DNA of 64,000 bases, from NCBI GenBank assembly GCA_963664815.2, contig CAXXHB010000003.1:3456001-3520000 (forward strand), in the 5' to 3' direction. The notes beneath the pieces are model-generated. The model was not told where the DNA came from. It made no database searches and was given only the letters and a program-made list of their open reading frames with translations. A program made the position numbers and the translations under genes. This document shows, piece after piece, positions 21,978-46,485 of the stretch. This DNA is from Spirochaetota bacterium (GTDB lineage: Bacteria; Spirochaetota; UBA4802; UBA5550). The first letter of the stretch is position 1, and each line of letters starts with the position of its first letter.

Positions 21978-22001
21978 TTAATTATATTTAAGGAGAAAAA
22001 T

Positions 22002-25233: not shown

Positions 25234-25241
25234 AAATGTTT

Positions 25242-26150: not shown

Positions 26151-26154
26151 TTAA

Positions 26155-30720: not shown

Positions 30721-31127
30721 TTTTTACCAGACTTTACCAGCTTAATAATACTTCTTTTAATCATCATTTCCTCAAAAGTCCAAACAAAAATCTTTTTTAT
30801 CAGATCATTTGTTAATCGGTTTTGTTACAAATATTTGTAAAATAGAGAGAGCAAAGAAACCGCACATTAAAACAGGATTTTATTTTCATAACAGTATTTA
30901 AAAATTACAATTTATAATTATCTTAAAAATAATATCTGAATAAAATACCGGAAAGAAAAGCGGTGAATAAATTTTAAAGAATCAGATCCATCGGCATATC
31001 ATGATATTAAAGAATATTAAAAATGCTTGATCTTTATTTTACAAAATGCATATAAAAATAAAATTCAGATTCAACGATTATATAACTCAAAGTCCATAGG
31101 GGAATTGAATTTAAAAGGAATAATATA

Positions 31128-31745
31128 ATGATAAACGAAGAAAGATACTGGAATAACGATGCATCAAATTATGATAAACGCGCTCAAAAATCACATGAAG
31201 CATACCTGAAAATTATCAGTCTTATTAAAAAAGATATAACAAATGAAATGAATATTTTAGATATTGGAACAGGAACAGGTGAAATACCGCTCAGCATCAG
31301 TAATGATGTAAAAAGTATCCATGCAATTGATTTTTCATCGGAAATGATTCAGATTGCTGAAAATAAAGCTGAAAAAAGAAGAATTGAAAACATTACATTT
31401 CTTGTCCAGGACGGTAATACCTTAAATTATGAAGATAATTCATTTGATGTAATCACTATTATAAATCTATTACATATTGTATCAAAACCCGGGAAAATTA
31501 TAAGTGAAGCAAAGAGATTAATTAAAAATGATGGTAAAATAATTATAGCGACATATCTGCACGATGAAAACATCAGAAGCAAAGTTATTTCATATTTCAT
31601 GAAAATGAAAGGTCATCCGGTAGTTACAATGTATAATAGTAAAACAATTTGTGAATATATAGAAGGATCTCTTTTAAAAATAATTTATAGTGAAAATATC
31701 CCGAATATAATGCCCATATTATACATTACAGCTGTAAAGAAATAA
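31128..31745 (+). CDS. Class I SAM-dependent methyltransferase
   Basis: ILDIGTGTG, IDFSSEMI, SFDVI...LLHIV. Confidence 0.9.
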   Translation: MINEERYWNNDASNYDKRAQKSHEAYLKIISLIKKDITNEMNILDIGTGTGEIPLSISNDVKSIHAIDFSSEMIQIAENKAEKRRIENITFLVQDGNTLNYEDNSFDVITIINLLHIVSKPGKIISEAKRLIKNDGKIIIATYLHDENIRSKVISYFMKMKGHPVVTMYNSKTICEYIEGSLLKIIYSENIPNIMPILYITAVKK

Positions 31746-31949
31746 GAATATAAGGAATCACCTGACACTGTGATGGACTTTATAAAATCAATATCAGATA
31801 AAGATTTAATGTCATCAATTGCTGTCTGAAAATTCAGACATTGATATTCTTCAGCAGACTTACTCTGATAAAAAAAATCCATGTATTGTTAAATCAATAA
31901 AAAATGCTCTCTGTCCGGAACATATATCCCTTTTTACTTTCATTTTAAA

Positions 31950-32549
31950 TCAAAGCCTGTAAGCTACATTAATCTGAAGTTCAAGCTCCTGGCTTTTAAT
32001 CAACGTTCCGAATTCCGGAAAGGGGGAGGCATCTTTTATTGTGGAAACTGCCGCTTCGTCGAGTATCTCATGCCCGGAGCTCTTTTTTATCTGTGAAGAT
32101 TTAAGCCTCCCTTTGCGGTCGATTACAAAAGATACGATAATCTCACCCTCCAGTCCTCTTTTTCTTGCATTGGGGGGATATTCTTTTTTCCTTTCAATCA
32201 GCTGTTTTACGGCTTCATTATATGTAAGGACGCTCATCCGGGCAGAGCCCTCAGATGAACCGCTCTGTTCAAGTGAACCATCATCAGACACTGTATCATA
32301 CACGGAACTCTCCCCCTTTTTCAGCATTTTATAATTACCAACGGTAAAATCATAAAATTCATCGGCGGAAACTTCGAATTCCTCCGTCAGCTCTGCCGGA
32401 TAACTGACTGCTGTGGCCGGATTTGTGAATATTACAGCTGAGACACCGGCGGCAATAATGTGAAAAACAAAAGACAGCATCAGATAAATTTTGAACCGGT
32501 CTTTTCTGTTATCTGATAAATACCGCACCGCCGGCTGCGTCAGGTTCAT
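31950..32549 (-). CDS. tonB: Energy transducer TonB
   Basis: N-terminal TM with S...H; YPPNARKRGLEG.V.F.I...G, SSG..ILD.AA. Confidence 0.88.
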   Translation of the reverse strand: MNLTQPAVRYLSDNRKDRFKIYLMLSFVFHIIAAGVSAVIFTNPATAVSYPAELTEEFEVSADEFYDFTVGNYKMLKKGESSVYDTVSDDGSLEQSGSSEGSARMSVLTYNEAVKQLIERKKEYPPNARKRGLEGEIIVSFVIDRKGRLKSSQIKKSSGHEILDEAAVSTIKDASPFPEFGTLIKSQELELQINVAYRL

Positions 32550-32579
32550 CGTTTTTATCGTCTCCTTTACTGCCCGGTT

Positions 32580-33506
32580 CTACAATGAGCTTTTAATAAT
32601 GTCGTGTATCCTGTCGGAACTGAGATCATCCATCGCATAGTATTTTCCTCCGAGAACCTCCGACAGCTCTGCAAGTCTGCCAAGCCTGATAAGGCCGCTT
32701 TCAGTATCTATTATAACCGAAAGAATCCCAAGTCCCCTGATTTCGGAGCACAACTCCTTCGCCTCATCAAATGGGTTCCCGTTTCCGATACTTACATTTC
32801 CCCTGCCGTCCGATATTATCACCATAACAGGCTTAATTTTACTGTTTTTCAGTTTCTCTTTTTTAATAACACCGATTCCTGCCGCAAGACCCGCTGAAAA
32901 GGGGGTTCTCCCCCCTGTCGGCAGTTGTTCAAGATTTTTCCCTGCTATCTCAATACTGCCGGTTGGCGGCAGCAGTACCAGCGCATCATTTCCTTTGAAT
33001 GCCACCATTGAGACCCTGTCACGTTTCTGATAGGCGTCATTCAGAATTGAGAGTATAGCCCCTTTTGCGCCGGACATTCGCTTTGATGCCCCCATTGAAC
33101 CTGACGAATCGACAACAAATACAATTAATGCGCCCGACTTTTTCTCCCTCACCTTCTCCCTGATATCGGAGTGATTGATCATCAGACTGTCACCATTTCG
33201 CCCTCTCGAAATCTGGTGAGGGGCTGCAGCTCTTATTGTTGCATCAACGGCTATATCCGTGACCTTGCCTGATGATATTCTGCTTGACCTGTATTTACCC
33301 CTTCTGTCGTCCGAGGCTGAATCGGTACTTTTACCTTTTGACGAAACAATCTTTCTCTCAAAAGGCTTCAATATTTTTTTTATGGTAACTGTATCATCAG
33401 CCGCAATTATCTCCTCTCGCGGAATGTTTTCTTCAGGTTTGTTTTCGCTGTTTACATCGCTTTCTGCACTGTTGTCCGGCTCGGGTTGATCATTTCGATT
33501 TTTTTT
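32580..33506 (-). CDS. chlD: Linker + VWA (MIDAS) half of ChlD/CobT-like chelatase subunit, -1 frame of a frameshifted chlD
   Basis: Frame is open from the A10 run to 32580; acidic/Pro linker, [31 protein letters not shown]. Confidence 0.88.
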
Positions 33507-34537
33507 TTACTGTTTTCTATCGCATCTGAGAGTTTATTCCGGTCTATCCCCTGTTCTTCAAAGGGTTTTCTCCTCATCCGGTGATTCAGTACAAGTTCAG
33601 CCGCCTCCTGAACATCCTCCGGCGTTACTTCTGTTCTCCCATGGTACGCCGCTATTGTACATGACACTTTAAGGATGAATATATCCGCCCTGTGCCCGTC
33701 CACTGCCATGGTTATAGCCACATCAGCTATTATATCAAGTATACTGTCATTATACTTCACATCAGGTAGCAGCTTTTCAGCAGCTGTAATAGTTTCAGCA
33801 ATCTTCCTTTCCTCTTCATCCCACTTATGTTCAAATTCATGGTGATCCTTTTCATAAGCCATATATCTCTGCATTACCTGCACTCTCTGCGCGGGGTCTG
33901 AAATCCCTTCAACTTCAATGCACATGCCGAACCTGTCTAAAAGCTGCGGGCGCAGTTCACCCTCTTCAGGATTCATTGTTCCCACAAGTATAAATCTTGC
34001 GGGATGGTGAAAGGATACCCCCTCCCTCTCTATGTAGTTTACACCCATTGCGGCGGCGTCAAGCATCACATCTACTATATGGTCATCGAGAAGGTTTATC
34101 TCATCAACGTAAAGTATCCCCCTGTTTACATCCGCCAGTATCCCGGGGTCAAAATGCTTTTCCCCCTTTTTAATGGCTTTTTCCATATCTATTGAACCGA
34201 TTACCCTGTCTTCAGTAGCTCCAAGGGGAAGCTCGACAACCCGTACCTTCCTTTCTACAGCGGGAAGTTTCTCCCCCGCTTCATACCTTGCGAAGCATGA
34301 ATGGCACATTTCATTTACTTTTTCTGCACTGCAGTTAAAGGGGCAGTCCTTTACAACATCAATAACCGGGAGGAGATTGGCAAGGGCTCTTGCCGCTGTC
34401 GATTTTGCGGTTCCTTTCTCCCCCCGGATCAGGACCCCCCCCAGGTTCGGATTAACGGCGTTAAGTATAAGAGCCTTCTTCATCTTTTCCTGGCCCACAA
34501 TTGCGGTAAAAGGAAAAACTGATTTTCTGCATGTCAT
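33452..34537 (-). CDS. chlI: ChlI/BchI-like AAA+ chelatase subunit (0-frame product of frameshifted chlD)
   Basis: [43 protein letters not shown]. Confidence 0.92.
33499..33508 (-). other. A10 slippery site for -1 frameshift joining ChlI and VWA frames
   Basis: AGT AAA AAA AAA ATC; the -1 frame has TAA at 33509-33507, so the shift must occur within the A run. Confidence 0.8.
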
Positions 34538-34563
34538 ATATTTTATCTCCTTGTTAAAAATGC

Positions 34564-34705
34564 CCTCACCCGCGCATTGCTGACGCCATGCTCCCGGTCG
34601 AACGCTTATTCGGCCTCCTGCCTGCGTTCGGCACTAAAACATCCTGTTTGTCGTCTCCCGTTTTACGGCGGGCGAGGGTTTCTGAATCAGAAAATTTCGG
34701 TGAGG
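34564..34705. repeat. GC-rich structured intergenic REP/MITE-like element
   Basis: Terminal CCTCACC/GGTGAGG; internal hairpins CGAACGC/GCGTTCG, AAACA-TCC-TGTTT, TTTCTGA-A-TCAGAAA. Confidence 0.55.
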
Positions 34706-34715
34706 AGTGTATTAT

Positions 34716-37700
34716 CTATTTTCTTACCTTCTCCATCATCTTACCCCATGAAGCCACATCATCCGGTGTCATAATATCAACGCTGCCCCCCTGAAAGTCT
34801 CCCTCAACGTCACCTATATTGTCCTCAATCCATCCCTCTATTGACAGATACTGCTGTTTGAGATTATTCAGCACCTCAGGATCGGCATTCCACAGGCCTC
34901 TTTCATTTGCCTCAAGAAGTCTTCTCCCCATCTCTTCAAGAGCCCAGGGATTGTTTTCTTCAAAAAACTTCCTGTTTTCATCATTCATTACAAATGTACG
35001 CGTTATATCATCAAAGACCGAATCATCCACCTCGCGGGTTGTAGCCTGCCATCCGTAAATTCTGCCCACCCTTTTGCTTATCTCCCCTGCGCCCTTGTAG
35101 CCGTGCTCCTTCATACCCTCTATCCATGCAGGATTAAGTATCTTTCCCCGTGCCACGCGCCGTATTTCATCAGAAAGGGTTCTGACGCTCACCCTCCCCG
35201 GTTCCCTTGTATCTCCGTAATAGTTCTGTATATCGTTTCCCGACACCACCTTCGACGCATTAATCAGGCCTCCATGAGCGCCGAAATAACAGCAGCATCC
35301 CGTGAGGTCATATTCATCTGTCATAGTCTTGTTGAATGTTGCGTCCACCGTTTTAAGGCTGCTTTTCAGAGTGTCATGCGCCTCAATGCCGAAGCTTCCT
35401 TTACCGTAAGCATACCCGTTCCAGTATATGAATACATCCGAAAGGTCGCTTTCTGTTTTCCATGCTGAAGCGTATACCGCAAGCTGTGTTCCCGCCTGGT
35501 AAGTGCCGGGCATACTCGCGAAGATTCTGTATGTACCGTTCCGGAACTTCTCTTCTTCCGTGAGGGATTTATCTGCCGCACTTACAGATTCAAGGCAGTG
35601 TTTTCTCACAAAATTCAGTTCAACAGATTCATCAAGTGCTGCTATACGCTGTACAGCCTCATCAAGAAGGTTAATCGCCGAGGGGAAGTTATCTCTTGTT
35701 ATTCCGGAAACCCGTACGGTGAGGTCAATGCGGGGCCTGTCAAGCTCAGCGAGAGGTATAACCTCAAAGCCCGTGACTCTGCCGTTTTTCCCCCACACGG
35801 GCCGGGCCCCCATAAGGTAAAGCATCTGAGCCATCCCCTCTCCGTCAGCCCACATGATGTCATTGCACTGCCAGTAGAAGGCTATATTCTCCGGATATCT
35901 CCCTTCATCGGCAAGATACCTGTCCACTGTTTTATCCGCAAGCATCCGTCCGACCTCCCACGCGGCCTGCGTCGGTATGCGGTGCGGATCAAGGGCGTAA
36001 AAATTTCTTCCGGTAGGGAGTATATCAGGCCTTCCGCGTGTAATGAGTCCTGACGGTCCCGGTTCTATGTATCTGCCGTTGAAACCGTTAAGAAGAGAGC
36101 CGATCTCATCCGATGCCTCAATATCGCATTTTATTTTATTAATACTTTCCTGAACAGTCTGTGCATCAACCCTGTCTTTTTTTTCCATTTTAAAGTGCAG
36201 TGACAGTGTATGGGCAAGATCAATCCCATGCAGGATATACATCCTGCATAGCTGGAGCATTATTTCATCGCACTTTTCAAAAAGCAATTCCTCACTGTAA
36301 TCGCCATTTATCTTCAGCAGCCGCAGTGTTATTCCGCGCAGACTATCCGGATCATCGCTGAATCTCACAATAGAATATATAAAATCCGCAAGTTTCTCCC
36401 CTTCAGGGATATTCCCGAAAATATGCATACCTTTAGGTATGGATGTATTTTTCAGAAGTGACAGTTTTTCGTGTATTTCATCGGTTTTTTTATCAATTCC
36501 TCCATGGGGAATATTTTCACCGTCAAGGAGATTCAGGCTGTTTACATTCTTCTCAATCATGTGCGCGATTGTATGAGCCTTACCCGGTTCTGTGTCTTTA
36601 TAACGGCTGTACTCTTCAAGGAGCCTTTCAAGCTGTTCAAGGTCTCCATAAAGCTCTCCATGCATCATTACAGTCTGCATATGGTCAACAAGCACGGCAT
36701 TGCTTCTCCTTTTCGCGATTATCCCTTCCGGGGGATTGTCCGCATTGTAGATATAAAGATGCGGAACCGTGTCTATGCATATATCAGGCATACATCCCGA
36801 TGAAAGGCCGGTGCCTTTACCGGGGAGAAATTCAAGATTGCCGTGAGTTCCCACATGCACAATTACGTCTGCACCGTAAACCCCTGAAAGCCACTTATAT
36901 GTGGCGATATACTGGTGCGGAGGGGGGACATCAGGATCATGGAGTATTTTGCACACCTGCCCGTCACAGCGCGCCCCCGCGCATCCGCGCTTCGGCTGTA
37001 CGCATACAACGGCGTTTCCATAGTCCACCCCTGTGACAAGTATTCTGTCCTGATACAGCATCGCGGCAGGTATACCATCCTTCTCCTCACCCGGCGGATT
37101 GCCCCATGCATCGATGAGTCTCTCCTGAGTTAATACCGGAATTTCATTAAACCACTCCATGTATTCTTCCTTCTCAACCTGAGCAAGAACCCCCCCTTTC
37201 TTTACTATCTCATCAGAAGTAGTCCACCTGAACTCCGATATTGCCTTGCGCTCCATAATTGTTTCGATAAGCTCTTTACCATCTGCCGGAGGCGTCAGGG
37301 AGTACCCCGCCTCTTTCATGCTATGCATTACCCTGGCTATACTTTCGAGAGTGTCAAGATGAGCGCCCCCTCCTACAGTGGCTTCAACTGATGCACACGG
37401 ATTATTGTTAAGGATAAATGCCACTTTTTTTTCACTGTTGGACTTTTTGCCGAGGGATATCCATCGTCCGATTCTTGCTGTCAGTTTCTCAATTCTGTCA
37501 GTAACAGCCTCGAAGGCCTCCTCATCGGGATTCCCCGCGCTTTTTGTCGCCCCGACTATAAGAGGCTCAATAACCCCTTCAAACTCAGGCATTGCAATGC
37601 TCCATGAAATCTGCGAACCAAGGCCCTGGGGATCATTAAGCCACTCCTCACGGCTTTTGTAATAGGAAATAACCGGATTAAAAAGAGGAATCCCCAGCCT

Positions 37701-38519
37701 CTTCATGAGTGATGCTCCGGTGACTGACTGTGAGGCTTCGATTCCCCCCCTGCCGCTCTCAAGAAAGAAGGAATTCAGTTTAACAATTCCGTCAACCGCA
37801 GCTACTCCCATTTTTGTCATGAAAAACTCAATTGCTTCGGCGCCGCTCATGTTTCCGAGATTTTTATCCTTAAGGGAATAGTAAAAAACAGGAATAACTC
37901 CAATTCCCCGTTTTTCAAACGACTCCACAAGCGCCCGCTCAACCTCAAGTTTTCCTGCCACCCAGTTTGTCCGTGAATACATAATTCCCACATAAAATGC
38001 AGGAACGAAATCAAGATATCTTTTATATGCATCAAGATAATTATCCGTATTATCAAAAGTCATTTCCATGGATGGATGGTATATCCCTTCCCATGAGACC
38101 TCTTCCGGAGGGCTGAAATCAACAGTACTGCCGAACATAACGCTCTGCAGATAATTCAGCATATTTATAAAATTCTCCCTGCCATTGAAGAGGATGTACC
38201 TGTACACATCGGCAACAATCTCCGGCCTTACAGTGGATAATGCCCAGAAGGAGGGATCACTCCCCACAACTATTACAGGAATTCTCCCTTTGAGATCTTT
38301 CAGTTCAATGTCAATATCATCCCAGAATGAATCATTAGCCCTGTAGAGCAGTATGATATCAGCGGACTGCAGTGCCGAACTCACTTTATTTATCGACTCC
38401 GGATATGTATTTAACTGTTTGTTTGAAAAAGCGTTGAGTTCAATTCCCAGTGAACATGCCGCGTCCTTCAGTACCGGGATATAGCTCGACCACATTACAG
38501 CAACGATTTTCATCTTCAT
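34716..38519 (-). CDS. cobN: Cobaltochelatase CobN / Mg-chelatase H family large subunit
   Basis: PEFEG, QPKRG, HVGTHGNLEFLPGK, AKRR, LPTGRNFY, RPRID, LNPAWIEGM..HGYKGA. Confidence 0.93.
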   Translation of the reverse strand: MKMKIVAVMWSSYIPVLKDAACSLGIELNAFSNKQLNTYPESINKVSSALQSADIILLYRANDSFWDDIDIELKDLKGRIPVIVVGSDPSFWALSTVRPEIVADVYRYILFNGRENFINMLNYLQSVMFGSTVDFSPPEEVSWEGIYHPSMEMTFDNTDNYLDAYKRYLDFVPAFYVGIMYSRTNWVAGKLEVERALVESFEKRGIGVIPVFYYSLKDKNLGNMSGAEAIEFFMTKMGVAAVDGIVKLNSFFLESGRGGIEASQSVTGASLMKRLGIPLFNPVISYYKSREEWLNDPQGLGSQISWSIAMPEFEGVIEPLIVGATKSAGNPDEEAFEAVTDRIEKLTARIGRWISLGKKSNSEKKVAFILNNNPCASVEATVGGGAHLDTLESIARVMHSMKEAGYSLTPPADGKELIETIMERKAISEFRWTTSDEIVKKGGVLAQVEKEEYMEWFNEIPVLTQERLIDAWGNPPGEEKDGIPAAMLYQDRILVTGVDYGNAVVCVQPKRGCAGARCDGQVCKILHDPDVPPPHQYIATYKWLSGVYGADVIVHVGTHGNLEFLPGKGTGLSSGCMPDICIDTVPHLYIYNADNPPEGIIAKRRSNAVLVDHMQTVMMHGELYGDLEQLERLLEEYSRYKDTEPGKAHTIAHMIEKNVNSLNLLDGENIPHGGIDKKTDEIHEKLSLLKNTSIPKGMHIFGNIPEGEKLADFIYSIVRFSDDPDSLRGITLRLLKINGDYSEELLFEKCDEIMLQLCRMYILHGIDLAHTLSLHFKMEKKDRVDAQTVQESINKIKCDIEASDEIGSLLNGFNGRYIEPGPSGLITRGRPDILPTGRNFYALDPHRIPTQAAWEVGRMLADKTVDRYLADEGRYPENIAFYWQCNDIMWADGEGMAQMLYLMGARPVWGKNGRVTGFEVIPLAELDRPRIDLTVRVSGITRDNFPSAINLLDEAVQRIAALDESVELNFVRKHCLESVSAADKSLTEEEKFRNGTYRIFASMPGTYQAGTQLAVYASAWKTESDLSDVFIYWNGYAYGKGSFGIEAHDTLKSSLKTVDATFNKTMTDEYDLTGCCCYFGAHGGLINASKVVSGNDIQNYYGDTREPGRVSVRTLSDEIRRVARGKILNPAWIEGMKEHGYKGAGEISKRVGRIYGWQATTREVDDSVFDDITRTFVMNDENRKFFEENNPWALEEMGRRLLEANERGLWNADPEVLNNLKQQYLSIEGWIEDNIGDVEGDFQGGSVDIMTPDDVASWGKMMEKVRK

Positions 38520-38526
38520 TCTCCTG

Positions 38527-39273
38527 TTATTCACTGTAGTCTTTAATAAGTTTTGAGCCGCAGACCAGAAAAACAGCCGTGTATATAATAATAACCGATG
38601 TGGAGATCAATGCATCTGAATCAAAATTCTGTTTTCTGATGAGAATATTTGTATGAGTCAGGGGGAGCAGATAAATAAAATATTTCAGGAACCTGGACAT
38701 ATTCTCAACAGGGAAAAATGTACCGCTGAAAAAAGCCATGGGCATTATAAAAAAATTCGTATATGTTGAAGTGTCCTCGTGTGTTTTTGTTATCATTCCT
38801 ATGACTACGCCTATGGCAGCGAAAAGAAACGAGTTTAAAATAAGGGCGATAGTAAATGTCAGTGTTATATGAAAATCCGCGGCGAAGATAATACCCACTA
38901 TAATTATAAAAAGTGAAGCAAAAAGTCCCCTGACCATTCCTGCCATTATCTCCCCTGCAAGTATGGAGTATGATGTAATCGGCGCCTGTATAAATATCTG
39001 AAAGTTTTTAAAATAAAGCCTGTTAAGGTTCAGTGAACTTGCAACCCAGTTGTAGGAATTGTTCATTGAACTCATTGCCGCAAGCCCGGGAACAAGGAAA
39101 CTCAGATAATCAGTACCCTTTATACTGACACTCCCTCTCAATCCGAAGCCGAAAGCAATAAGGTAGACAACCGGCATCATCATTGCTGAAAAGACATATC
39201 CCATTTTCATTATCTTTTTTCTGAAAATAAGCATCTGCCTTAAAAAAACAGGGTACCATCCGTAAATCATCAT
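38527..39273 (-). CDS. ABC-2 type transporter permease
   Basis: YLSFLVPGL, PMAFFSGTFFP, LPLTH. Confidence 0.9.
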   Translation of the reverse strand: MMIYGWYPVFLRQMLIFRKKIMKMGYVFSAMMMPVVYLIAFGFGLRGSVSIKGTDYLSFLVPGLAAMSSMNNSYNWVASSLNLNRLYFKNFQIFIQAPITSYSILAGEIMAGMVRGLFASLFIIIVGIIFAADFHITLTFTIALILNSFLFAAIGVVIGMITKTHEDTSTYTNFFIMPMAFFSGTFFPVENMSRFLKYFIYLLPLTHTNILIRKQNFDSDALISTSVIIIYTAVFLVCGSKLIKDYSE

Positions 39274-40103
39274 TCTATTCTCTCCCCCGTAAGTTTTATA
39301 AATACATCCTCAAGATTGGACTTCCTTATTGATACTCCGTTGTTTCTTTTACGGGCTGTTTTGTATGCATCCTCCCTTGTTGACTTTATCTCGGTCACAA
39401 GCTTCCCCTGATCGCCTGTGTATTCAACAACATACTCCCCGACAGATGAACGAAGACCGGCAGGTGAATCCAGAGCTATACGGCTCCCTTTTGAAAGTAT
39501 TGCAACAGTATCACAAAGAGCTTCTGCCTCTTCAATATAGTGGGTTGTGAGTATAACTGTACGCCCTTCATACCTGGTCTTTCTGATTATATCCCACACC
39601 TCCCTTCTTATCTGAGGATCAAGACCGATGGAGGGTTCATCAAGAAAAAGAATTGATGGTTCAGGAAGGAGAGCCCTTGCAATAAGAAGCCTTCTCTGCA
39701 TACCCCCTGAAAAGCCTGTGATTACATGATCCTTCCTGTCATAGAGGTCGACCATCCTGAGAGATCTTGCAACTTTACTTTTCAGATCCCTTACTTTATG
39801 AAGCATGCCGTAAATATACAGATTCTGATAAGCCGTAAGATCACGGTCAAGATTGTTTACCTGGGGGACTATTCCGACAAGTGGCTTGACGCTTTCCGGA
39901 TTTTCAGCAACGTCAAAACCATTTATTATACATCTCCCCGAATCAGGTTTGGTAAGAGCGGTGAACATTTTTATGGTAGTGGTCTTCCCGGCGCCATTGG
40001 GACCAAGCAGCCCGAAAATCCCGCCATCACTTATTTTAAAAGAGAGATTTTTCACAGCCTCGACCCTGCCGTAAGATTTTGAAACATCAGCGGCTTCTAA
40101 CAT
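39270..40103 (-). CDS. ABC transporter ATP-binding protein (DrrA/NodI-like exporter type)
   Basis: GPNGAGKT, FSGGMQRR, LDEPSIGLDP, TTHYIEEAE. Confidence 0.92.
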   Translation of the reverse strand: MLEAADVSKSYGRVEAVKNLSFKISDGGIFGLLGPNGAGKTTTIKMFTALTKPDSGRCIINGFDVAENPESVKPLVGIVPQVNNLDRDLTAYQNLYIYGMLHKVRDLKSKVARSLRMVDLYDRKDHVITGFSGGMQRRLLIARALLPEPSILFLDEPSIGLDPQIRREVWDIIRKTRYEGRTVILTTHYIEEAEALCDTVAILSKGSRIALDSPAGLRSSVGEYVVEYTGDQGKLVTEIKSTREDAYKTARKRNNGVSIRKSNLEDVFIKLTGERIE

Positions 40104-40875
40104 TTTTTACTCCCGGATGAACTACTTTGATCCCTTTCCAGTTAAACACCGAAACAGAATTTCCGTACATCTCTTTCAGATTTTTATTATTTAATACATC
40201 ATGCGGCCTGCCGGATGAAAGTACAGTTCCGCAGTGAAGCATAACAACCTTGTCGGAATATATCATTGCCAGATTGGGATCATGCACTGTCATCAAAAGA
40301 GTGAGTTTTTTTGATTTAACTGTTTCATAAACCCTGTCCAGAACCATAACCTGGTTTTTAAGATCAAGGTGTGATGTCGGTTCATCAAGAACCATTACGG
40401 GAGCATCCTGAGCTATACCGCGGGCGATAAGTACAAGCTGCCTTTCTCCCCCGCTGATCTTCGTGTATGGTCTTTCTGCAAGGTGCCCTATGCCCATCAT
40501 CTCTATTGCATCGGAGGTTTTCTCGCGATCCTCCCGTGAAGGGGATGAGAACACCCCGATATGCGGAGCCCTTCCCATGAGAACAGCATCAAAAACCGTA
40601 TACGGAAACGGGGGTTCATGATCCTGCGGGACTACGGATATAATCCCGGCCCTTATCCTGTGAGGCATTTCTGTAATATCCTTTCCGCAGTATCCTATTG
40701 ATCCTGACAGCGGTTTCCACAAGCCGGTTATGCAGTTGAAGAGGGTTGTTTTGCCTGAACCATTGGGACCCAGGATAACTGTAATTTCTCCTTTATGAGC
40801 TTTCAGTGAAACTCCGTGCAGTACATTTCCCGAATCAGTATTATGACTGTAATAAATATCCCTTATTTCCATCAT
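40087..40875 (-). CDS. ABC transporter ATP-binding protein (FecE/BtuD-like importer type)
   Basis: GPNGSGKT, ISGGERQ, LDEPTSHLD, HDPNLA. Confidence 0.92.
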   Translation of the reverse strand: MMEIRDIYYSHNTDSGNVLHGVSLKAHKGEITVILGPNGSGKTTLFNCITGLWKPLSGSIGYCGKDITEMPHRIRAGIISVVPQDHEPPFPYTVFDAVLMGRAPHIGVFSSPSREDREKTSDAIEMMGIGHLAERPYTKISGGERQLVLIARGIAQDAPVMVLDEPTSHLDLKNQVMVLDRVYETVKSKKLTLLMTVHDPNLAMIYSDKVVMLHCGTVLSSGRPHDVLNNKNLKEMYGNSVSVFNWKGIKVVHPGVKNVRSR

Positions 40876-41876
40876 TCACCCCAGGTTTCCGATCCGCTTC
40901 GTTTCATTAAATAGATAAAGAAGGGAGCGCCTATAATTGCAGTGATAATGCCGACAGGTATATCCAGTTCTGTCATGCTTCTGGCGATTGTATCGGATAT
41001 GATCATAAATGTAGCTCCCCCCGCCATACTGAGCGGAACCAAACTCCTGTGATCAGGCCCCGAAAACATTCTTATAAGATGGGGTACCATCAGCCCGACC
41101 CATCCGATAATTCCGCTTACCGAGACTGCTATACTTACCATAAGTGTTGATGCCGCAATAAAGATTATCCTTTCAACGGCAACATTGAATCCCAGGTTCT
41201 TTGCCTCATTCTCCCCCATACTCATTACATTGAGCCGCCACCTCATGAGGTAAACCGGTATAAAACCGGCGATAATCCCTGAAGCGGCAATCTTCACCAT
41301 CTTCCAGTCTGCAAGCGCGAAACTCCCCATAAGCCAGTACACAATGTTCTGCAGTTTATGCGGATCAACTGTAAACTTCACAATTGAAACAAGAGCGGAG
41401 AAGAATGCCGAAACAATGACACCCGAGAGTATAAGATGAAGCCTTGAAATCTCCCCCCGCGACCTTGCTGCTGCAAGGGCAATAAACACAGCGCTTACAG
41501 CGAAAACAAACGCCATCGGCTGTACCGGTATTCCGGGGAAGAAACCTATTGAAAGGGAGCAGCCCAGAGCAGCCCCTGCGGATATACCGAGGATAAAGGG
41601 ATCAACAAGAGGATTTCTGAATATACCCTGCAGTGTCACGCCGGAAACAGAGAGAGCCCCCCCTGCCAGCGAGGCAAGTATTACCCGGGGGAGCCGTATA
41701 TCAAAGAGTACAGATTTTTCCGGAATGTCGCTGAATTTCCCCGATACAAAAACCGCGTCGCAAATGCTGCGCAGAATAAATAAAGGTGAAATTCCATATG
41801 AGCCGATAAACAGCGCCGTTGATCCTGCTATCACAGGGGACAGGTATATTAAAACTCTCCCCGGACTAGTTTTCAA
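40872..41876 (-). CDS. FecCD/BtuC family ABC permease
   Basis: IRLPR, FRNPLVDP..LGISAGA, IGWVGLMVPH, PVGIITA..GAPFF. Confidence 0.93.
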   Translation of the reverse strand: MKTSPGRVLIYLSPVIAGSTALFIGSYGISPLFILRSICDAVFVSGKFSDIPEKSVLFDIRLPRVILASLAGGALSVSGVTLQGIFRNPLVDPFILGISAGAALGCSLSIGFFPGIPVQPMAFVFAVSAVFIALAAARSRGEISRLHLILSGVIVSAFFSALVSIVKFTVDPHKLQNIVYWLMGSFALADWKMVKIAASGIIAGFIPVYLMRWRLNVMSMGENEAKNLGFNVAVERIIFIAASTLMVSIAVSVSGIIGWVGLMVPHLIRMFSGPDHRSLVPLSMAGGATFMIISDTIARSMTELDIPVGIITAIIGAPFFIYLMKRSGSETWGE

Positions 41877-42858
41877 TTTTCTTCACCATGCTGTATGGAA
41901 TATTAAAAACCATTCTGTAAAAATTATCAGTTATATCATTAAAATTTATATCTTTATAATACAGGGGATATGTTTTCATTGCCATCCAGAGCGCAACCGG
42001 CGCTACCCTGGGGGACCATGTTGACCACTCAGGTGCTTTGTAGACTCTGCTGTCCTTAACTGCTTTAATGTGCTTCCACTGCGGATTATTTATTATATCC
42101 GTAACTCCATATGTTGCATTTCCCCAGATAAATATCACGTCAGGATTCCATCTGATGATCTTTTCAATGGAGACGTCTGAGTTTCGGCCCCCTATTTCAG
42201 CAGCGGAGTTAACAGCTCCGATCAGGGTAATGATGTCATGGGTAAGACCTGCAGTACCGGAAACCCCTGTGGGCCGCCCGCCGAGCCAGAGAACCTTCTG
42301 CTTTTCACTATTTTTTATTTTTCCGGATCTCTTTTTAATAATTGATAATATCTCATCCATCCTTGAAAGACAGTATTCCATTCTTTTCTCTTTCCCGAAG
42401 AGCCTGCCGTGAAGTTTTAATACATCATAAAGTTCTGACATTGAATCGGGATAAATGCTTATAACAGTAAGCCCTTTATCCTCCATAAACCTGACCTGCT
42501 CCTGCCTGAATGTCCATGAAACAACAAGATCCGGCCGTATTTTCATCATACTCTCCATGTTAATATCAATCCCGGAACCGACAGATGGAAGTCCTGAAAG
42601 ACTACCCCCTGATGCTTTGATTAAGTCGTTGCTGTTAGTCCACTTGCCTGAGGCAGCTATCTGATCCCATATGCCGAGAGCGGGAATAAGCTCATAGGTT
42701 GTAAGAAGTACAGCCCTCTTTACCGGAATCTGAACGTTCACACTCTTGCCGGTTTTATCCCTGTATGTCAGAATTTCAGCAATTAAAGGGTTATACGGAA
42801 ATACTGTTATGATCAGAAAGATTATTGAAAATAAAAAAATCTGATTGTATCGTCTCAC
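41866..42858 (-). CDS. Fe-siderophore/cobalamin-type ABC substrate-binding protein
   Basis: Signal peptide; NMES..K.RPDLV, SIEKI..WNPDVI, AVKDSRVY. Confidence 0.9.
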   Translation of the reverse strand: MRRYNQIFLFSIIFLIITVFPYNPLIAEILTYRDKTGKSVNVQIPVKRAVLLTTYELIPALGIWDQIAASGKWTNSNDLIKASGGSLSGLPSVGSGIDINMESMMKIRPDLVVSWTFRQEQVRFMEDKGLTVISIYPDSMSELYDVLKLHGRLFGKEKRMEYCLSRMDEILSIIKKRSGKIKNSEKQKVLWLGGRPTGVSGTAGLTHDIITLIGAVNSAAEIGGRNSDVSIEKIIRWNPDVIFIWGNATYGVTDIINNPQWKHIKAVKDSRVYKAPEWSTWSPRVAPVALWMAMKTYPLYYKDINFNDITDNFYRMVFNIPYSMVKKIEN

Positions 42859-43051
42859 GGTTATATTATTCCTTTTAGCTTTGCCCCCGCTTTTGCTTTA
42901 TCGAGCTTACATTTAACCACATTCCCAGCTGGAGAACAAAACTTCATTTATTTAATGCTCCCCCTCGGTACAACGGCGTACTTTTGATAATTTAAAAAAC
43001 CTGTTCCTTTACACCGTCACTCGGGGAGTGAACAATTACTCCCAGTTTTAA

Positions 43052-45433
43052 TTATATCTTTATCTGTGCTTCGGCAAAGTAATTTCTTCCTTCACAGACA
43101 TAGTACTGAAAGTATTCTCTGTCCAGGAGATTGTTCACACTGAAACTGAATTTAACCTTATCACCGGGCATCAGTGACAGCTTCAGATCAAGAAGCTTTA
43201 CTGCATCATAAGATGTATATACACCCTCCACAGTATCGCTGTTGTCTGAATTAGCGTAAACATGGTCACAGTATCGCCAGTTGATGCATCCTTCAGCTTT
43301 TTTAAATATTGCCTTCAGTCCCGCATTGTACATCAGTTCAGGTACATTGGTAAACTGTTTGCCCACAGAAGCAGTGTCAGTATCATTCTTTGTTACCTCG
43401 GTATCTGTCTTTGTCATATTACCATAAAGCTCGATGTAGTCCATGATATAGAGTTTACCCTCAAGTTCAAACCCGTGAATTTTGCCTTCGCCGGCATTAT
43501 TATAAATTTTATCCGCCACAGTTGCCGTATCGTTTGTTATCATATAATAAATCATATTTGTAACGGTACTTCCGAAATATGTCCCTGATATGATAAATGT
43601 TTTATCCATGAACCCTATATCCCCACCGATTTCCCATGACCTGCTTTTTTCAGGTTTCAGATCAGGATTCGGGTAATAATGGGTGGTTTTCGTCCCTGAT
43701 ACCGAATCCCAGTATTTATACAGCTGGTAGATATTCGGCGGATTATATCCTTCCCCATAAGAGGCTTTCAGCGATTCCAGTTTTACCTTAAAAAACTCTA
43801 TGCCGGGTTTAAATACAATTGAAGCTTTCGGCGCGATATTCCAGTCGGTTGTAGTGGAGTAATTATTTTCAGTTGTATTGTACCTGCTCTCTCCGTCATA
43901 ATTTTTCCAGTAATCATATCTTGCTCCGCCATAAAGAATAAGAACTTTTTTTATAATATCATATTCAAGCTGGGAATAGAGCGATGACATAAGCTGGCTC
44001 CCTTCCATTTCGCTGAAATGATCAGTTGAAGTATCAATTTCCGTGTCAAAATCCTTCCAGTTGTATAAATTCCACTGGTCACCCTCTGCATGATCGTGCC
44101 TCATACCTGCGCCAACTGTAAGTACACCTGAATCCGTAAAGTGAATATCGACCTGTACATCACCATATAAAGTTGATGCCGGATCTGTAGTATTGATGTA
44201 TCCGGCACCTCCGGCGAAATCGGCACCTGTTGATGGAGTTGAGTACTTGCTTGAGGACTGATTACTGCCGAACTTTGCGCTGATATCAAGGAGACCCGCT
44301 TTGAGCGAATAATCAAGGACATTTATCCGGCTCTCTGTTTCTCCCCCTCCGCTTGTAAGAAATGTTTTCGGTGTTATAGCTTTATAATAGTTCGTTCCGC
44401 CGTCATTAAATGTAATATTGCCGGATGTTACAGAATAACCTGTTGTGGAGTTTTTGAGATAACTTTTTGGATCTTTGTAGCCATAGGCATAATTTGCCAG
44501 TTTGAATGAGTACCCAAGCTTTGAATTTTCTGTCATATCCCAGGAAACCTTTCCTGTTGCAACCTGCTGATCCCAGCAGTTTTTCCCTGAATCGCCGATT
44601 ACATAGATCCTGTTTCCCTTTGTATCAGTACTGGCCTCCATCCCTGTTACAGAGACAGGGCTTGTAAGTGCAGTCGTACCGGGTGTTGTTGTAATAAGAT
44701 TATTTCTTATACCGTCACTTGACATGAAATCATAAGTAAGAAGAACACTGACACTGTCATAATACCTGTCACCGTAACTGGCAGAACCTGAATATGTATT
44801 ATTTGTACCGTAACCGGCCTTTACCGATGCCTCCTGCTTATCCGGAGCCTTCGTTATTATGTTTACAACCCCGCCCATTGCGTTTCTTCCGTAAAGGCTG
44901 GAGAATGGGCCCTTTACCACTTCTATACTTTCAGTAGATTCCATAGAATGAGAACCCCAGTTGGGAGATGATGAATAGCTGTCATTAAGAGGCATACCAT
45001 TCCACATTATAAGGTTGCTGCCGCTCCCCTTGAATCCCCTTATTGCAACAGAGGTAGTGGTGTCACTTATCTTTGATCTTTTCAGGTAAACTCCCGGAAC
45101 TGACTTAAGCGCCTCGTCAAGGTGTTTGCCGCTTGAAAGGGATATATCTTCTTTATCAATAACCGAAACTGAGGCTGGAGAATCCCCGATTTTATGGCCT
45201 GTTTTTGTGGGGGTTACTACAATTTTCCCGAGTTTTATGCTGCCTTTGTTTTTGTCTTCAGAATCATTTACAGCAGGCTTTTTATTCTCTTTGGATTCGC
45301 TGTCAGCTGCATCTGACTTGCCTGTATTCTCCGCTATATTCTGCCTGTCCGCCGGAACTGTTTTATCAGTTGTCCCGGCTAACAGTGAAACAGAGAGTGA
45401 TGTTATGAACAATACCAGTATTATCTTTTTCAT
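43052..45433 (-). CDS. TonB-dependent outer membrane receptor
   Basis: Signal peptide from ATG 45433 (GAGGA RBS); IVVTPTK TonB box, IEVVKGPFSSLYG..AMGGVVNI, NPDLKPE, NLLDREY, GRNY. Confidence 0.93.
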   Translation of the reverse strand: MKKIILVLFITSLSVSLLAGTTDKTVPADRQNIAENTGKSDAADSESKENKKPAVNDSEDKNKGSIKLGKIVVTPTKTGHKIGDSPASVSVIDKEDISLSSGKHLDEALKSVPGVYLKRSKISDTTTSVAIRGFKGSGSNLIMWNGMPLNDSYSSSPNWGSHSMESTESIEVVKGPFSSLYGRNAMGGVVNIITKAPDKQEASVKAGYGTNNTYSGSASYGDRYYDSVSVLLTYDFMSSDGIRNNLITTTPGTTALTSPVSVTGMEASTDTKGNRIYVIGDSGKNCWDQQVATGKVSWDMTENSKLGYSFKLANYAYGYKDPKSYLKNSTTGYSVTSGNITFNDGGTNYYKAITPKTFLTSGGGETESRINVLDYSLKAGLLDISAKFGSNQSSSKYSTPSTGADFAGGAGYINTTDPASTLYGDVQVDIHFTDSGVLTVGAGMRHDHAEGDQWNLYNWKDFDTEIDTSTDHFSEMEGSQLMSSLYSQLEYDIIKKVLILYGGARYDYWKNYDGESRYNTTENNYSTTTDWNIAPKASIVFKPGIEFFKVKLESLKASYGEGYNPPNIYQLYKYWDSVSGTKTTHYYPNPDLKPEKSRSWEIGGDIGFMDKTFIISGTYFGSTVTNMIYYMITNDTATVADKIYNNAGEGKIHGFELEGKLYIMDYIELYGNMTKTDTEVTKNDTDTASVGKQFTNVPELMYNAGLKAIFKKAEGCINWRYCDHVYANSDNSDTVEGVYTSYDAVKLLDLKLSLMPGDKVKFSFSVNNLLDREYFQYYVCEGRNYFAEAQIKI

Positions 45434-45767
45434 TTTGTTCCTCTTTACCTGTATTAATGTTACAAATTTATTATTTTTACTATTTGTCAAATATATTATT
45501 ATATTATATATTACTATAAACATATTTTTTAATGAAAAACATACACTACTTTATCAAACATCAGTTTACTTCAAATTCTGAACATGATTACAGGATTTAA
45601 GTATTGGAAGGATTTTCTGCAGACAGGGGATATCGTACACGAAAGAACTTACATCGTGCATCAGCAGGTTTACATGTAATGCCCCGGCAGATTTATGACA
45701 AATTTCACAATCTGTTTACAGAGTATTCAATTTCGCTTCAATTACGCCTCAAACACGCTACATACAG

Positions 45768-46307
45768 CTATAAACGCGCGTTTTTCTCTGTCGGTAACGG
45801 TATTGAAACGGTATTGAAACGGTTTTTAACAGGGTCTACATACTGCTTAAGCCCCGTTTTAACAGATATACCTCTGTTTTTTACTGCATTAATATTATTC
45901 TGTCCATCGGCCGATCTGCTGTTTCCTGAATTGTAACAGGTATATGCTGTAATTTCACCGGAAGAAGATACAACCACTGCATCCCCTGTTCCGCCGCTTC
46001 CCGATGGAGTAACAGGTGAACCTGGAGCAATGCCGCGAAGGTATTCAGACATAAAGAGGTTGTAACCTGACTTTTTCTTTCTTTTTGCCCTTATTCTGTA
46101 AATAGATTTCTCCTCTTCCGGAAGAAACTGCCATGCCTTTACGCCGCCGCCAAAATTGCCCCTGCACTTCACCTGCGGTTCAGTTCGCGGATTGGAGGGG
46201 ATTGTGCGTGCTTTAATGTAGATTTTACCGTAACGGCGGTATAGAACAAGACCATCCAGACCACCATGCGCAGTTCTTAAATAGGGGTGAAGCTTTACTT
46301 TAGCCAT
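45768..46307 (-). CDS. Basic hypothetical protein with HMG-box-like motif (DUF6266-like N-terminus)
   Basis: AAGGAG RBS; G.LDGLV.YRRYGK, PSNPRTEPQ..R..F, W..L..EEK..Y...A, GYNLFMSEY. Confidence 0.7.
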   Translation of the reverse strand: MAKVKLHPYLRTAHGGLDGLVLYRRYGKIYIKARTIPSNPRTEPQVKCRGNFGGGVKAWQFLPEEEKSIYRIRAKRKKKSGYNLFMSEYLRGIAPGSPVTPSGSGGTGDAVVVSSSGEITAYTCYNSGNSRSADGQNNINAVKNRGISVKTGLKQYVDPVKNRFNTVSIPLPTEKNARL

Positions 46308-46485
46308 AGATTTACACTCCTTTTAATTATTTTCTATTATGTTATTGTATTGAAATTTATGTCTCATATAACCAGTGCGGAAAAGCAAATGACATGGGGC
46401 AAGCAGATTTTTTAATAAAGATAAATTATATTCCGGCACAAAAAAAGCCGATTAATTAATTGATTACAATTTAAAAAAAACAGGT

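Follow-up and report, generated by a model that had tools for sequence, protein, structure and literature searches.

CobN-superfamily proteins whose genes share an uptake operon with that of a TonB-dependent receptor, apart from any biosynthetic pathway, include HmuS and BtuS of the Bacteroidota hmu and btu loci, which are described as periplasm-facing, motor-less enzymes (PMC12583661, PMC6460266; the latter cites Rodionov 2003 for 'salvage of metalloporphyrins'). HmuS is reported as a membrane-bound, NADH-dependent protein of 1469 residues that faces the periplasm, functions without ChlI/ChlD, and has heme ligands of its own together with a Met-rich insertion; its removal of metal from a tetrapyrrole sets a precedent for dechelation inside the superfamily (PMC12583661). 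Methanogen 'CobN' paralogues, whose function is given as unknown and which were once proposed to be nickel chelatases (PMC3087415; PMC12583661), match the same NF004646 model as the CobN considered here; two of the four control genomes with a match pass its cut-off. CobN is also tied to TonB-type transport genes, with function stated as unknown, in Geobacter lovleyi pSZ77, G. uraniireducens, and Pelobacter propionicus, where cobN accompanies tonB-exbBD and receptors (PMC3403914), and in the cobN-bchHID cluster of an Antarctic Chlorobium (PMC8620254); the excerpted descriptions, by which these loci are set apart from ours, name no ABC-2 exporter, fs-chlD, or nickel link.

Two further systems resemble parts of the locus. 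Helicobacter pylori takes up nickel through NiuBDE (CeuE/FecDE) and TonB-dependent receptors under the control of NikR (PMC5140060; PMC5385501). The gene fs-chlD yields small and medium chelatase subunits by programmed frameshifting; its published stages place it either where no large subunit is encoded (stage 1) or beside cobN on the aerobic route to B12 (stage 8) (Kuznetsov, Milenkin and Antonov 2022, PMC9227772; citing Antonov 2020).

The ten-gene cassette and its relatives

The window, a stretch of 64,000 nucleotides from a Spirochaetota genome, contains a ten-gene cassette that combines an outer-membrane receptor, a nickel-chelate-like importer, an exporter, and a Cys-rich, ATP-driven chelatase. 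The cassette is a single minus-strand operon running from 45433 to 31950 (Table 1), and the nine gene types that the initial annotation had described as co-oriented and mostly overlapping are all found on that strand. The genes from the binding protein through CobN overlap by 4-17 nt in the ORF caller listing; gaps of 193 nt follow the receptor gene, 178 nt separate cobN from chlI, and 30 nt precede tonB. This tightly packed operon encodes a full import route over both membranes (TonB, receptor, binding protein, FecCD permease, and ATPase), a complete cytoplasmic class I chelatase, and an ABC-2 exporter.

Table 1. Features of the cassette and its flanks, with window coordinates and supporting matches.
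Feature	Position	Strand	Evidence
Operon promoter region	45434..45560	-	TTGACA and single GTAACAT half-site, without full NikR-type box
TonB-dependent outer-membrane receptor	43052..45433	-	794 aa from ATG at 45433; plug and barrel domains
Periplasmic binding protein, cluster A-II, NiuB/CeuE-like, Peripla_BP_2	41866..42858	-	PF01497
FecCD/BtuC-type importer permease	40872..41876	-	PF01032, 301 bits
Importer ATPase, BtuD/heme/F420-0 ABC type	40087..40875	-	PF00005
DrrA/NodI-type exporter ATPase	39270..40103	-	TIGR01188, 283 bits (cut-off 312)
ABC-2 exporter permease	38527..39273	-	PF01061, 71 bits
CobN-type large chelatase subunit, cysteine-rich subfamily	34716..38534	-	PF02514, 1227 bits; NF004646, 1761 bits (cut-off 1468)
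G+C-rich cobN/chlI spacer, 178 nt	34538..34715	-	Moderately structured
chlD zero frame, ChlI-like AAA+ small subunit, 361 aa	33452..34537	-	TIGR02030, 436 bits; TIGR02442 positions 1-341
A10 slippery run, -1 shift site	33499..33508	-	Sequence; A9 or A10 in related cassettes
chlD -1 frame: acidic linker and VWA domain, DSSGS MIDAS motif	32580..33509	-	TIGR02442 positions 406-641; PF13519
Dedicated TonB	31950..32549	-	PF03544; N-terminal membrane anchor

The receptor ORF was called as 43052-45523, but its signal peptide (MKKIILVLF) begins at the ATG that the initial annotation had also taken as the end of the locus; CobN likely starts at ATG 38513. The importer ATPase falls under the cut-off of every NCBIfam equivalog, the cassette permease is one of three FecCD-type permeases in the genome, and the ABC-2 permease has no relative among solved structures at E up to 0.01. 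The cobN/chlI spacer (minimum free energy -50.4 kcal/mol, z -2.2; 3/200 shuffles fold equally well) is single-copy in the genome and not present in related loci.

Gene order is identical in four related loci (L003, L036, L039, and L040) and also in L002, which is without a receptor in the stretch examined; the import-chelatase-export order is kept in five other genomes from at least two phyla. The DrrA-type ATPase (59-72% identity) adjoins CobN in all five, where ABC-2 permease orthologues are 60-77% identical, and the exporter pair adjoins CobN in 6/6 loci whose CobN is at least 59% identical, which bears out the view of the cassette as a self-contained unit that is conserved as a whole. Receptor orthologues are 39-56% identical, and L003 has ExbB, ExbD, and TonB at the position of tonB in the window. 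CobN was found in none of seven same-genus genomes, the NF004646 cut-off is passed in 7 of the 401 genomes of the phylum sample, and G+C content is 44.6% in the cassette against 38.6% in the rest of the window; the cassette is best read as an accessory unit, probably acquired horizontally.

Recoding of chlD

The zero frame of chlD, with Walker A (GEKGTAKS) and Walker B (LYVDE) motifs, stops 17 codons past the slippery run; the VWA part (ORF 32580-33371) lies in another frame, and the -1 frame opens exactly at the A run. An A9-A10 run at the identical codon, with the -1 frame encoding linker and VWA domain, occurs in 5/5 full cassettes whose chlD is shifted, some of them G+C-rich. By this conservation, the frame break is a -1 recoding site and not damage. 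The 'frameshifted ChlD' of the initial annotation is a real feature of the sequence: in three public runs, drawn from two studies, contigs spanning 33173-34000 or more show no differences (one run may be the assembly source). It is not decay, since the site is conserved. That the operon is decaying, with a disabling mutation or an assembly error in chlD, is scarcely credible: the halves do fall in separate frames, and errors are common in homopolymer runs, but besides the conserved run and the agreeing contigs, the remaining cassette genes are all intact and fs-chlD is a described form of recoding (PMC9227772).

As judged from its features, chlD of the window is the published fs-chlD type, one gene giving small and medium subunits: the AAA+ module ends in an AT-rich slippery site, the -1 shift leads into linker and VWA domain, the short product is ChlI-like and the long one ChlD-like, and cobN adjoins. 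Reading past the shift would yield the ChlD-like medium subunit. The A9-A10 run also permits transcriptional slippage, and no conserved RNA structure was found 3' of the shift site. Unlike either published stage, fs-chlD and cobN here lie in a transporter cassette of a genome without a B12 pathway.

NikR-type operators in relatives and a cysteine-rich CobN

In searches against the PDB, the binding protein matches H. pylori CeuE/NiuB (4ino, 4ls3) at E 5e-35 as a single sequence and 8.8e-49 as a profile of six orthologues, with the heme and B12 binders ShuT (4e-13) and BtuF (8e-10) far behind. This nearest solved relative binds Ni-(His)2. A NikR-type box (GTGTTAC-N13/14-GTAACAC, the consensus drawn from Tables 4 and 11 of PMC545781) is found in the receptor promoters of four of five orthologous cassettes: without mismatch in L036 (0/1000 shuffles), with two mismatches in L040 (2/1000), and with three each in L003 (20/1000) and L039 (23/1000). 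The best match in the window promoter has four mismatches, equalled by 274/1000 shuffles and not significant, and nickel control is therefore suggested for the relatives only, as sequence matches. In the host itself, a NikR-type box precedes cbiM/nikM by 74 nt. NikR is encoded in G000, G331, and G370 and was not found in G012 or G410. The operators of the relatives favor nickel over heme or corrinoid.

The resemblance to the H. pylori system extends, by sequence, to the closest solved binding protein, a FecCD-type ABC importer, TonB-dependent outer-membrane steps, and NikR-type operators 5' of four of five orthologous cassettes; the Helicobacter system lacks the chelatase and exporter, and the window promoter lacks a significant box.

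CobN (1272 residues) scores under the cut-offs of biosynthetic CobN (TIGR02257, 762 against 822) and BchH (792 against 829). A motif C511-x6-C518-x4-C523-x4-C528 adjoins its catalytic HDPD..PPH stretch and is kept in at least 8/9 NF004646-type CobNs, but is not present in solved CobN, solved ChlH, or 4/4 distant paralogues; further cysteines are C380, C890, and C1080-C1081. This motif, the full AAA+ motor, the inner-membrane importer, and the exporter distinguish the cassette from the HmuS/BtuS loci, and no signal peptide is apparent in CobN by eye; the parallel with those periplasm-facing, motor-less enzymes drawn by the initial annotation is not supported.

Possible functions

The reading favored here, tentatively, is that the cassette scavenges a nickel chelate, extracts the metal at the expense of ATP, and discharges the ligand. 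When metal is scarce, the cell would take up a chelate that binds its metal tightly, probably a Ni-N4 complex and perhaps a tetrapyrrole of nickel; the Cys-rich CobN, powered by the ChlI/ChlD AAA+ motor, would remove the metal in the cytoplasm, and the emptied ligand would be expelled by the ABC-2 pump. The lack of a metallochaperone gene in the cassette, by domain and family profile search, was counted in its favor. Against it, the Ni-(His)2 complex bound by NiuB is labile and requires no chelatase, and the receptor falls, under cut-off, closest to the heme/hemoglobin receptor subfamily. Least certain is that the chelatase extracts metal instead of inserting it: to our knowledge, all class I chelatases with an I/D motor studied so far insert metal, and the one proven dechelatase, HmuS, is motor-less and outside the cytoplasm (PMC12583661). 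That record suits an unlikely but serious alternative, in which nickel or cobalt is imported as a small chelate and inserted into a tetrapyrrole of the cell's own (uroporphyrinogen III, precorrin-2, or sirohydrochlorin derivatives), and the ABC-2 pump carries the product, now with its metal, into the periplasm or out of the cell. Motor-driven class I chelatases have been shown only to insert, E568 and E603 of the catalytic stretch are invariant in 13/13 sequences, the binding protein is NiuB-like, and no class II chelatase was found in the host (CbiX, CbiK, and ferrochelatase were looked for); a CcmC-like (Cytochrom_C_asm) gene by the DrrA/ABC-2 pair of a paralogous locus would, by analogy, recall heme export by CcmABC. 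HemC is found in 10/10 host genomes tested, adjoining a cobA/hemD fusion in the host, but it is also found in 37/41 relatives, CobN carriers or not, and so gives no co-occurrence signal. We know of no bacterial nickel tetrapyrrole or user of one, which counts against insertion; it is also counter-intuitive that a NikR-repressed operon should spend nickel when nickel is short, the cassette has no further tailoring genes, and the host lacks CobB/CfbB.

Harvest of heme iron in the manner of HmuS/BtuS, with CobN stripping imported heme and protoporphyrin IX pumped out, is improbable. HmuS offers a precedent (PMC12583661), and a cobN-chelatase-ABC cluster of Treponema denticola has been proposed, without test, to take up iron from hemin (PMC12724145). 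The top NCBIfam match of the receptor is TonB-hemin, and residues 550-697 align to HasR; its score of 203 bits is, however, under the cut-off of 317, and an unrelated second receptor in the window reaches 208. The 'heme-like' His of the initial annotation is present between YNPP (residue 563) and NPDL (589), but in a 4-residue insertion peculiar to the window, and 0/6 orthologous receptors keep it. No Fur box was found in 7/7 promoters (best matches 6-8 mismatches, no better than shuffles; 7/19 in the window, equalled by 201/300 shuffles), a weak test since the Fur consensus of the lineage is not known. The binding protein ranks heme binders far under NiuB, and HmuS, periplasm-facing and motor-less, is the lowest solved relative of CobN (356 bits, against 545 for CobN and 505 for ChlH). 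Corrinoid salvage or B12 synthesis, in which CobN supplies cobalt to a corrinoid imported without it or is the late-insertion cobaltochelatase, is very improbable, and for intermediates already largely refuted. It draws on CobN family membership, on the published role of fs-chlD and cobN in the aerobic B12 route (PMC9227772), and on distant paralogue loci in G009 and G034 that hold CbiZ, BtuR, a radical SAM enzyme, and a CN hydrolase; these paralogues are 30-33% identical and without the Cys motif, and CobN is under the TIGR02257 cut-off. The host genome lacks CbiD, CbiB, CobS, and CobB and has only two TP-methylases, hence no corrin pathway, so that any corrin intermediate would be a dead end; CbiB occurs in 1/5 other host genomes, and CobB-like matches in G331 and G370 are DsrN next to dsrAB. 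In agreement with the initial annotation, which had also noted the lack of cob/cbi biosynthesis genes in the operon, no cobalamin riboswitch was found (none in the whole window at gathering score; none in 31900-46600 at E up to 1, where the sole match is a chance ncr952, E 0.41), and the one such riboswitch of the genome lies elsewhere, 5' of a separate BtuB-like receptor.

The separate B12 pathway for which that annotation wished to check is thus absent. Its proposal would have yielded to a biosynthetic-type CobN, a complete late-insertion B12 pathway, and an unconserved exporter pair; CobN lies under the biosynthetic cut-offs, the pathway is missing, and the exporter pair is conserved. What stands of its scavenging proposal is the conserved, self-contained cassette and a host genome that lacks the B12 pathway; heme or corrinoid as ligand is improbable, the metal more likely being nickel. 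Given a host that makes no vitamin B12 and the make-up of the cassette, the operon would probably serve to harvest metal, likely nickel, from a chelate taken up from outside.

Gene content and distribution of the cassette

All of the gene types named in the initial annotation, from the TonB-dependent receptor to TonB, are present on one minus strand, as supported by ORF calls and matches to Pfam and NCBIfam models; the end that it assigned to the receptor is the ATG at which the signal peptide begins. Called genes from the binding protein through CobN overlap by 4-17 nt. The ABC-2 permease, for which a PDB search found no solved relative, and the DrrA-type ATPase are both present and are predicted to form an ABC-2 exporter of the DrrAB/NodIJ type. 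The reported absence of a cobalamin riboswitch at the cassette holds, as no Rfam family attains its gathering threshold at any point of the window; permissive filters (E up to 1) gave a chance sRNA match only in the cassette, and a promoter and terminator scan of 31000-46600 gave counts not above those of shuffles.

Genes and ORFs of the cassette, in order of transcription (positions in the window)
Gene or ORF	Position	Strand	Remarks
TonB-dependent receptor	ORF 43052-45523	-	signal peptide MKKIILVLF from ATG at 45433
Peripla_BP_2 binding protein	41866-42858	-	
FecCD permease	40872-41876	-	
Importer ATPase	40087-40875	-	
DrrA-type ATPase	39270-40103	-	TIGR01188, 282.9 bits; subfamily cut-off 312.45 missed
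ABC-2 permease	38527-39273	-	PF01061 (ABC2_membrane), 70.9 bits
CobN	34716-38534	-	PF02514 positions 1-1089 of 1090, 1227 bits
ChlI-like AAA+ ORF	33452-34537	-	TIGR02030, 436 bits
VWA ORF	32580-33371	-	frame differs from ChlI-like ORF
TonB	31950-32549	-	

Between cobN and chlI lies a G+C-rich spacer of 178 nt (34538-34715), whose predicted fold is closed by a long stem (MFE -50.4 kcal/mol, z -2.2; equalled by 3 of 200 shuffles); it has no second copy in the genome, and cobN and chlI abut in the related loci, which lack it. The cassette is directly preceded by a basic ORF of 179 aa (45768-46307) that shares its strand; neither Pfam nor NCBIfam gave a match for it, and none of the related loci has a counterpart scoring 70 bits or more.

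Four loci from related genomes repeat the gene sequence receptor, binding protein, FecCD permease, ATPase, DrrA, ABC-2, CobN, ChlI/D: L003 (a MAG titled Spirochaetota, with a CobN 81% identical to that of the window), L036 (G331), L039 (G012), and L040 (G370). A fifth locus, L002 (a MAG titled Desulfomonilaceae), keeps the order from the binding protein onward and has a TonB-like gene upstream. Reflecting this recurrent order, the exporter pair adjoins CobN in all six loci with a CobN of at least 59% identity, and was not found in L035, L037, or the truncated L038, where CobN is 41-48% identical. The proposal that these genes, exporter included, form a self-contained unit is thereby strengthened. 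No CobN was found in seven same-genus genomes; of 40 relatives, 8 have one, and the cut-off of NF004646, the NCBIfam model for the CobN-type family to which it belongs, is passed by 7 of 401 genomes of the phylum sample. This patchy occurrence, together with the G+C contrast between the cassette (44.6%) and the remaining window (38.6%), fits an accessory unit moving between genomes. Comparison of the island borders with same-genus genomes gave no DNA match for the left flank, and the right-flank genes are scattered in relatives. An IS701-family transposase gene (53213-54325) lies about 8 kb from the cassette.

More distant CobN paralogues (31-34% identical) occur in clusters of two relatives (L041-L043; G009 C51 and G034 C22) that also encode CbiZ, BtuR, a radical SAM enzyme, a 490-aa CN hydrolase, ferredoxin, receptors, ExbBD-TonB, and DrrA/ABC-2 pairs of 38-43% identity; these clusters are a candidate corrinoid-remodelling system. 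The pairing of a CobN-type protein with an ABC-2 pump thus recurs, once in a corrinoid-salvage setting. In one paralogue locus a CcmC-like gene stands beside the ABC-2 pair, and this heme-handling neighbour hints that the pump may move a tetrapyrrole.

The chelatase and its recoded motor

The set for a class I ATP-dependent chelatase is complete: a full-length CobN/ChlH large subunit, an AAA+ small subunit and, if the frame is shifted, a medium subunit. NCBIfam and PDB scores, standing in for a tree with named anchors, place the window CobN above the NF004646 cut-off (1761 vs 1468 bits), below that of biosynthetic CobN (TIGR02257, 761.8 vs 822.05 bits), and below that of BchH (792 vs 829 bits); its solved relatives are Mycobacterium tuberculosis CobN (545 bits), ChlH (505 bits), and, weakest, HmuS (356 bits). 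The NF004646-type CobNs have in common the motif C511-x6-C518-x4-C523-x4-C528, located in and around an insertion of 4-5 residues directly ahead of the HDPD..PPH stretch, as well as C380, C890, and C1080-C1081. Of the first 9 aligned sequences, at least 8 have each of these cysteines, which, C1080 excepted, are missing from all four distant paralogues; the four-cysteine motif is also absent from solved CobN (7c6o, 9uk9) and ChlH (4zhj). Seven residues (H532, D533, H540, H560, H564, E568, and E603) do not vary across the 13 aligned sequences and align to the stretch of CobN and ChlH that holds the mutated residues of ChlH structures 6yt0 and 6ytj; the catalytic members are presumably among them. 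Judged by these sequence features, the window chelatase is of a distinct, cysteine-rich kind.

It differs from both of the systems to which it might be assigned. A late-insertion CobNST would be expected to pass TIGR02257 and to be accompanied by a corrin pathway. The host genome (5.2 Mb, 3 contigs, 96% complete) has this one CobN, and a genome-wide search found no CbiD, CbiB, or CobS and a CobB-like match of only 21.8 bits, extending to the whole genome the initial annotation's view that cob/cbi biosynthesis is missing. There are only two TP-methylase domains, one of them in a cobA/hemD fusion beside hemC. The only cobalamin riboswitch of the genome (G000 C3:305094-305278) shares the contig with the cassette, at a distance of about 3.2 Mb, and stands immediately ahead of a BtuB-like receptor (L047 2094-4367) that has no neighbouring ABC importer; FecCD-type importers number three in all. 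Among five other cassette hosts, CbiB was found in the Desulfomonilaceae MAG only. The window CobN is not a B12 gene. The second system, HmuS/BtuS, is membrane-anchored and faces the periplasm, whereas the N-terminus of the window CobN, MKIVAVMWSSYIPVLKDAA, shows by eye neither a signal peptide nor a long hydrophobic stretch. HmuS, a proven heme de-chelatase that works without a motor (PMC12583661), has the heme ligands Met-79 and His-254, along with a Met-rich insertion (structure 9d26), and is about 190 residues longer than the window CobN. HmuS/BtuS operons encode a hemophore and no ChlI/ChlD motor; in the cassette ChlI/ChlD are present and no HmuY-like gene was found.

CobB-like matches in two same-order relatives that carry the cassette (G331 and G370), considered as an F430- or B12-like amidase, proved to be DsrN beside dsrAB and dsrC; G012 also gave a CobB-like match. 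The loci concerned (L052, G331 C1; L054, G370 C120) contain dsrAB, dsrC, parts of dsrMKJOP, and the DsrN-like amidase gene, by which these two organisms are dissimilatory sulfite or sulfate reducers.

The initial annotation listed ChlD as frameshifted. The zero frame of chlD reads AGT AAA AAA AAA ATC and stops 17 codons further on; the -1 frame, open from precisely the A10 run (33499-33508) onward, encodes an acidic linker as well as a VWA domain whose MIDAS motif is DSSGS. The same shift, at the same codon, is found in all five full cassettes that have it (window, L003, L036, L039, and L040), each with an A9 or A10 run and an early zero-frame stop, the linker and the VWA domain being encoded in frame -1; the run is retained even amid G+C-rich DNA. 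In more distant loci (L002, L004, L042, L043, and L045), chlI is a gene of its own and chlD is uninterrupted. Contigs of three public runs, which belong to two studies, reproduce the stretch with zero differences, one run possibly being the source of the assembly. The conserved site counters a reading of the shift as damage; on this comparison the break is recoding. Runs of 9-10 A permit transcriptional as well as ribosomal slippage. The AAA+ module, linker, and MIDAS-bearing VWA domain make up a medium subunit only when the -1 shift is read. Walker A of ChlI is GEKGTAKS, a variant in which Ala occupies the position where a second Gly is usual, as in 10 of 15 ChlI/ChlD sequences examined, and Walker B is LYVDE. 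The slippery site at the AAA+/linker junction, followed by an open frame, matches the fs-chlD signal, a published recoding by which a single chlD yields small and medium subunits (Kuznetsov, Milenkin and Antonov; PMC9227772), and two products are likewise predicted here. The downstream stimulatory RNA structure of fs-chlD is not predicted in the cassette gene, since RNAalifold on the five sequences gave 0 pairs.

Nickel and heme signals

Signals for heme at the cassette are weak. The top family of the receptor is the TonB-hemin subfamily, whose cut-off is not reached, and another window receptor scores alike on this model. The histidine between YNPP and NPDL, which had been likened to that of heme receptors, lies in an insertion found only in the window protein and is kept in none of six orthologues. 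Among seven promoters scanned, none has a Fur box better than shuffles.

Signals for nickel, themselves drawn from sequence matches, are stronger. A profile of six orthologues of the binding protein matches Helicobacter pylori CeuE/NiuB (labelled in the PDB deposit as a periplasmic nickel-binding protein) at E 8.8e-49 over profile positions 14-309, compared with 4e-13 for ShuT, 2.8e-11 for IsdE, and 8e-10 for BtuF; the protein is thus a homologue of NiuB of the NiuBDE system and is predicted to handle nickel. For delta-proteobacteria, the inverted repeat GTGTTAC-N13/14-GTAACAC has been predicted to be the NikR operator (PMC545781, Tables 4 and 11). Against this predicted, delta-proteobacterial consensus, four of five orthologous cassettes have a box at the receptor promoter that at most 23 of 1000 shuffles equal: a perfect repeat in L036 (0/1000), two mismatches in L040 (2/1000), and three each in L003 and L039 (20/1000 and 23/1000). 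In the window promoter a GTAACAT half-site is all that is present; the closest full-length match there has four mismatches and is equalled by 274 of 1000 shuffles; NikR-type control is therefore, as sequence matches only, a property of the relatives. A search for NikR genes found them in the host, G331, and G370 and none in G012 or G410. The cbiM/nikM gene of the host, serving as an internal control, has a NikR-type box 74 nt upstream (two mismatches), and boxes with two and three mismatches belong to the cbiM operons of G411 and G410, respectively; none was seen for cbiM in the fetched stretches of G012 and G331, and near nikR genes none was found at three mismatches or fewer save two in coding or G+C-rich DNA. 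The NiuB-like binder, the NikR-type boxes in relatives, and the cysteine motif at the active-site stretch are independent sequence signals and point to nickel as the likeliest metal.

Elsewhere in the window, a periplasmic-type [FeFe] hydrogenase pair (20694-22328; large subunit 20694-21977, small subunit 22002-22328 with a Tat-like signal) has a weak NikR-type box, ATAACAC-N13-ATATTAC (20578-20604, three mismatches), about 90 nt upstream, an arrangement that recalls the NikR-controlled hydAB predicted for Desulfovibrio desulfuricans (PMC545781). At 12000-14795, a second TonB-dependent receptor of 685 aa, which with 208 bits falls short of the TonB-hemin cut-off, and behind it a 235-aa ORF with no family match neighbour hydrogenase maturation proteases (15392-16340) and an NADH-dependent [FeFe] hydrogenase operon (16569-20511). 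A metal-homeostasis run (22406-26793) encodes an AztC/ZnuA-like binding protein, a TIGR03943 permease, an SO_0444-like Cu/Zn efflux protein, and two family-less ORFs.

Possible function of the cassette

Gene content and order show a complete predicted import route, a predicted cytoplasmic class I chelatase, and an exporter in one conserved, mobile operon that is independent of a B12 pathway. The reading that accounts best for this combination, put forward tentatively, is metal scavenging: under shortage of a metal, most likely nickel, a tightly bound chelate would be imported, the cysteine-rich CobN and its AAA+ motor would remove the metal, and the ABC-2 pump would expel the emptied ligand. 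A more specific form, in which the chelate is an environmental nickel tetrapyrrole (coenzyme F430, its breakdown products from methanogens, or nickel porphyrins), nickel is extracted by the ATP-driven CobN for hydrogenases, and the macrocycle is exported, is doubtful.

The main rival reverses the chemistry, with imported nickel or cobalt inserted into an endogenous tetrapyrrole and the product exported; this retains the known direction of motor-driven class I chelatases, and the host has no detectable class II chelatase (CbiX, CbiK, and ferrochelatase were not found). Insertion is somewhat unlikely, yet less so than the other alternatives. HemC is present in 10 of 10 hosts tested, but 37 of 41 relatives have it, making its co-occurrence with the cassette uninformative. 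Harvest of heme iron is improbable, given the sub-threshold receptor score, the unconserved histidine, and the lack of Fur boxes above shuffles, while salvage of corrinoids, in a host without CbiD, CbiB, CobS, or CobB, is very improbable. That the operon is simply decaying is scarcely credible in view of the conserved -1 site and the agreement of the three runs.

CobN-like genes in TonB uptake clusters have long been noted, as BtuS/HmuS (PMC6460266, citing Rodionov 2003) and in Geobacter lovleyi (PMC3403914), and those outside the B12 and chlorophyll pathways, common in anaerobic bacteria and methanogens, are described as unexplained (PMC12583661; PMC3403914). The combination of a cytoplasmic, motor-driven, cysteine-rich CobN with a NiuB-like importer, an ABC-2 pump, and NikR-type boxes was not found in the main texts of the open-access papers searched. 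With its dedicated import route, recoded motor-driven chelatase, and exporter, the cassette is a compact, transferable test system, and whether metal is extracted or inserted is within reach of ordinary biochemistry. Insertion would imply a bacterial metallo-tetrapyrrole not yet known; with extraction, the enzyme would be the first de-chelatase known to be driven by ATP, and nickel would be acquired by a new route. If nickel is pirated from tetrapyrroles, a function would be at hand for the 'CobN' proteins of anaerobes and methanogens, a large family that is still unexplained.
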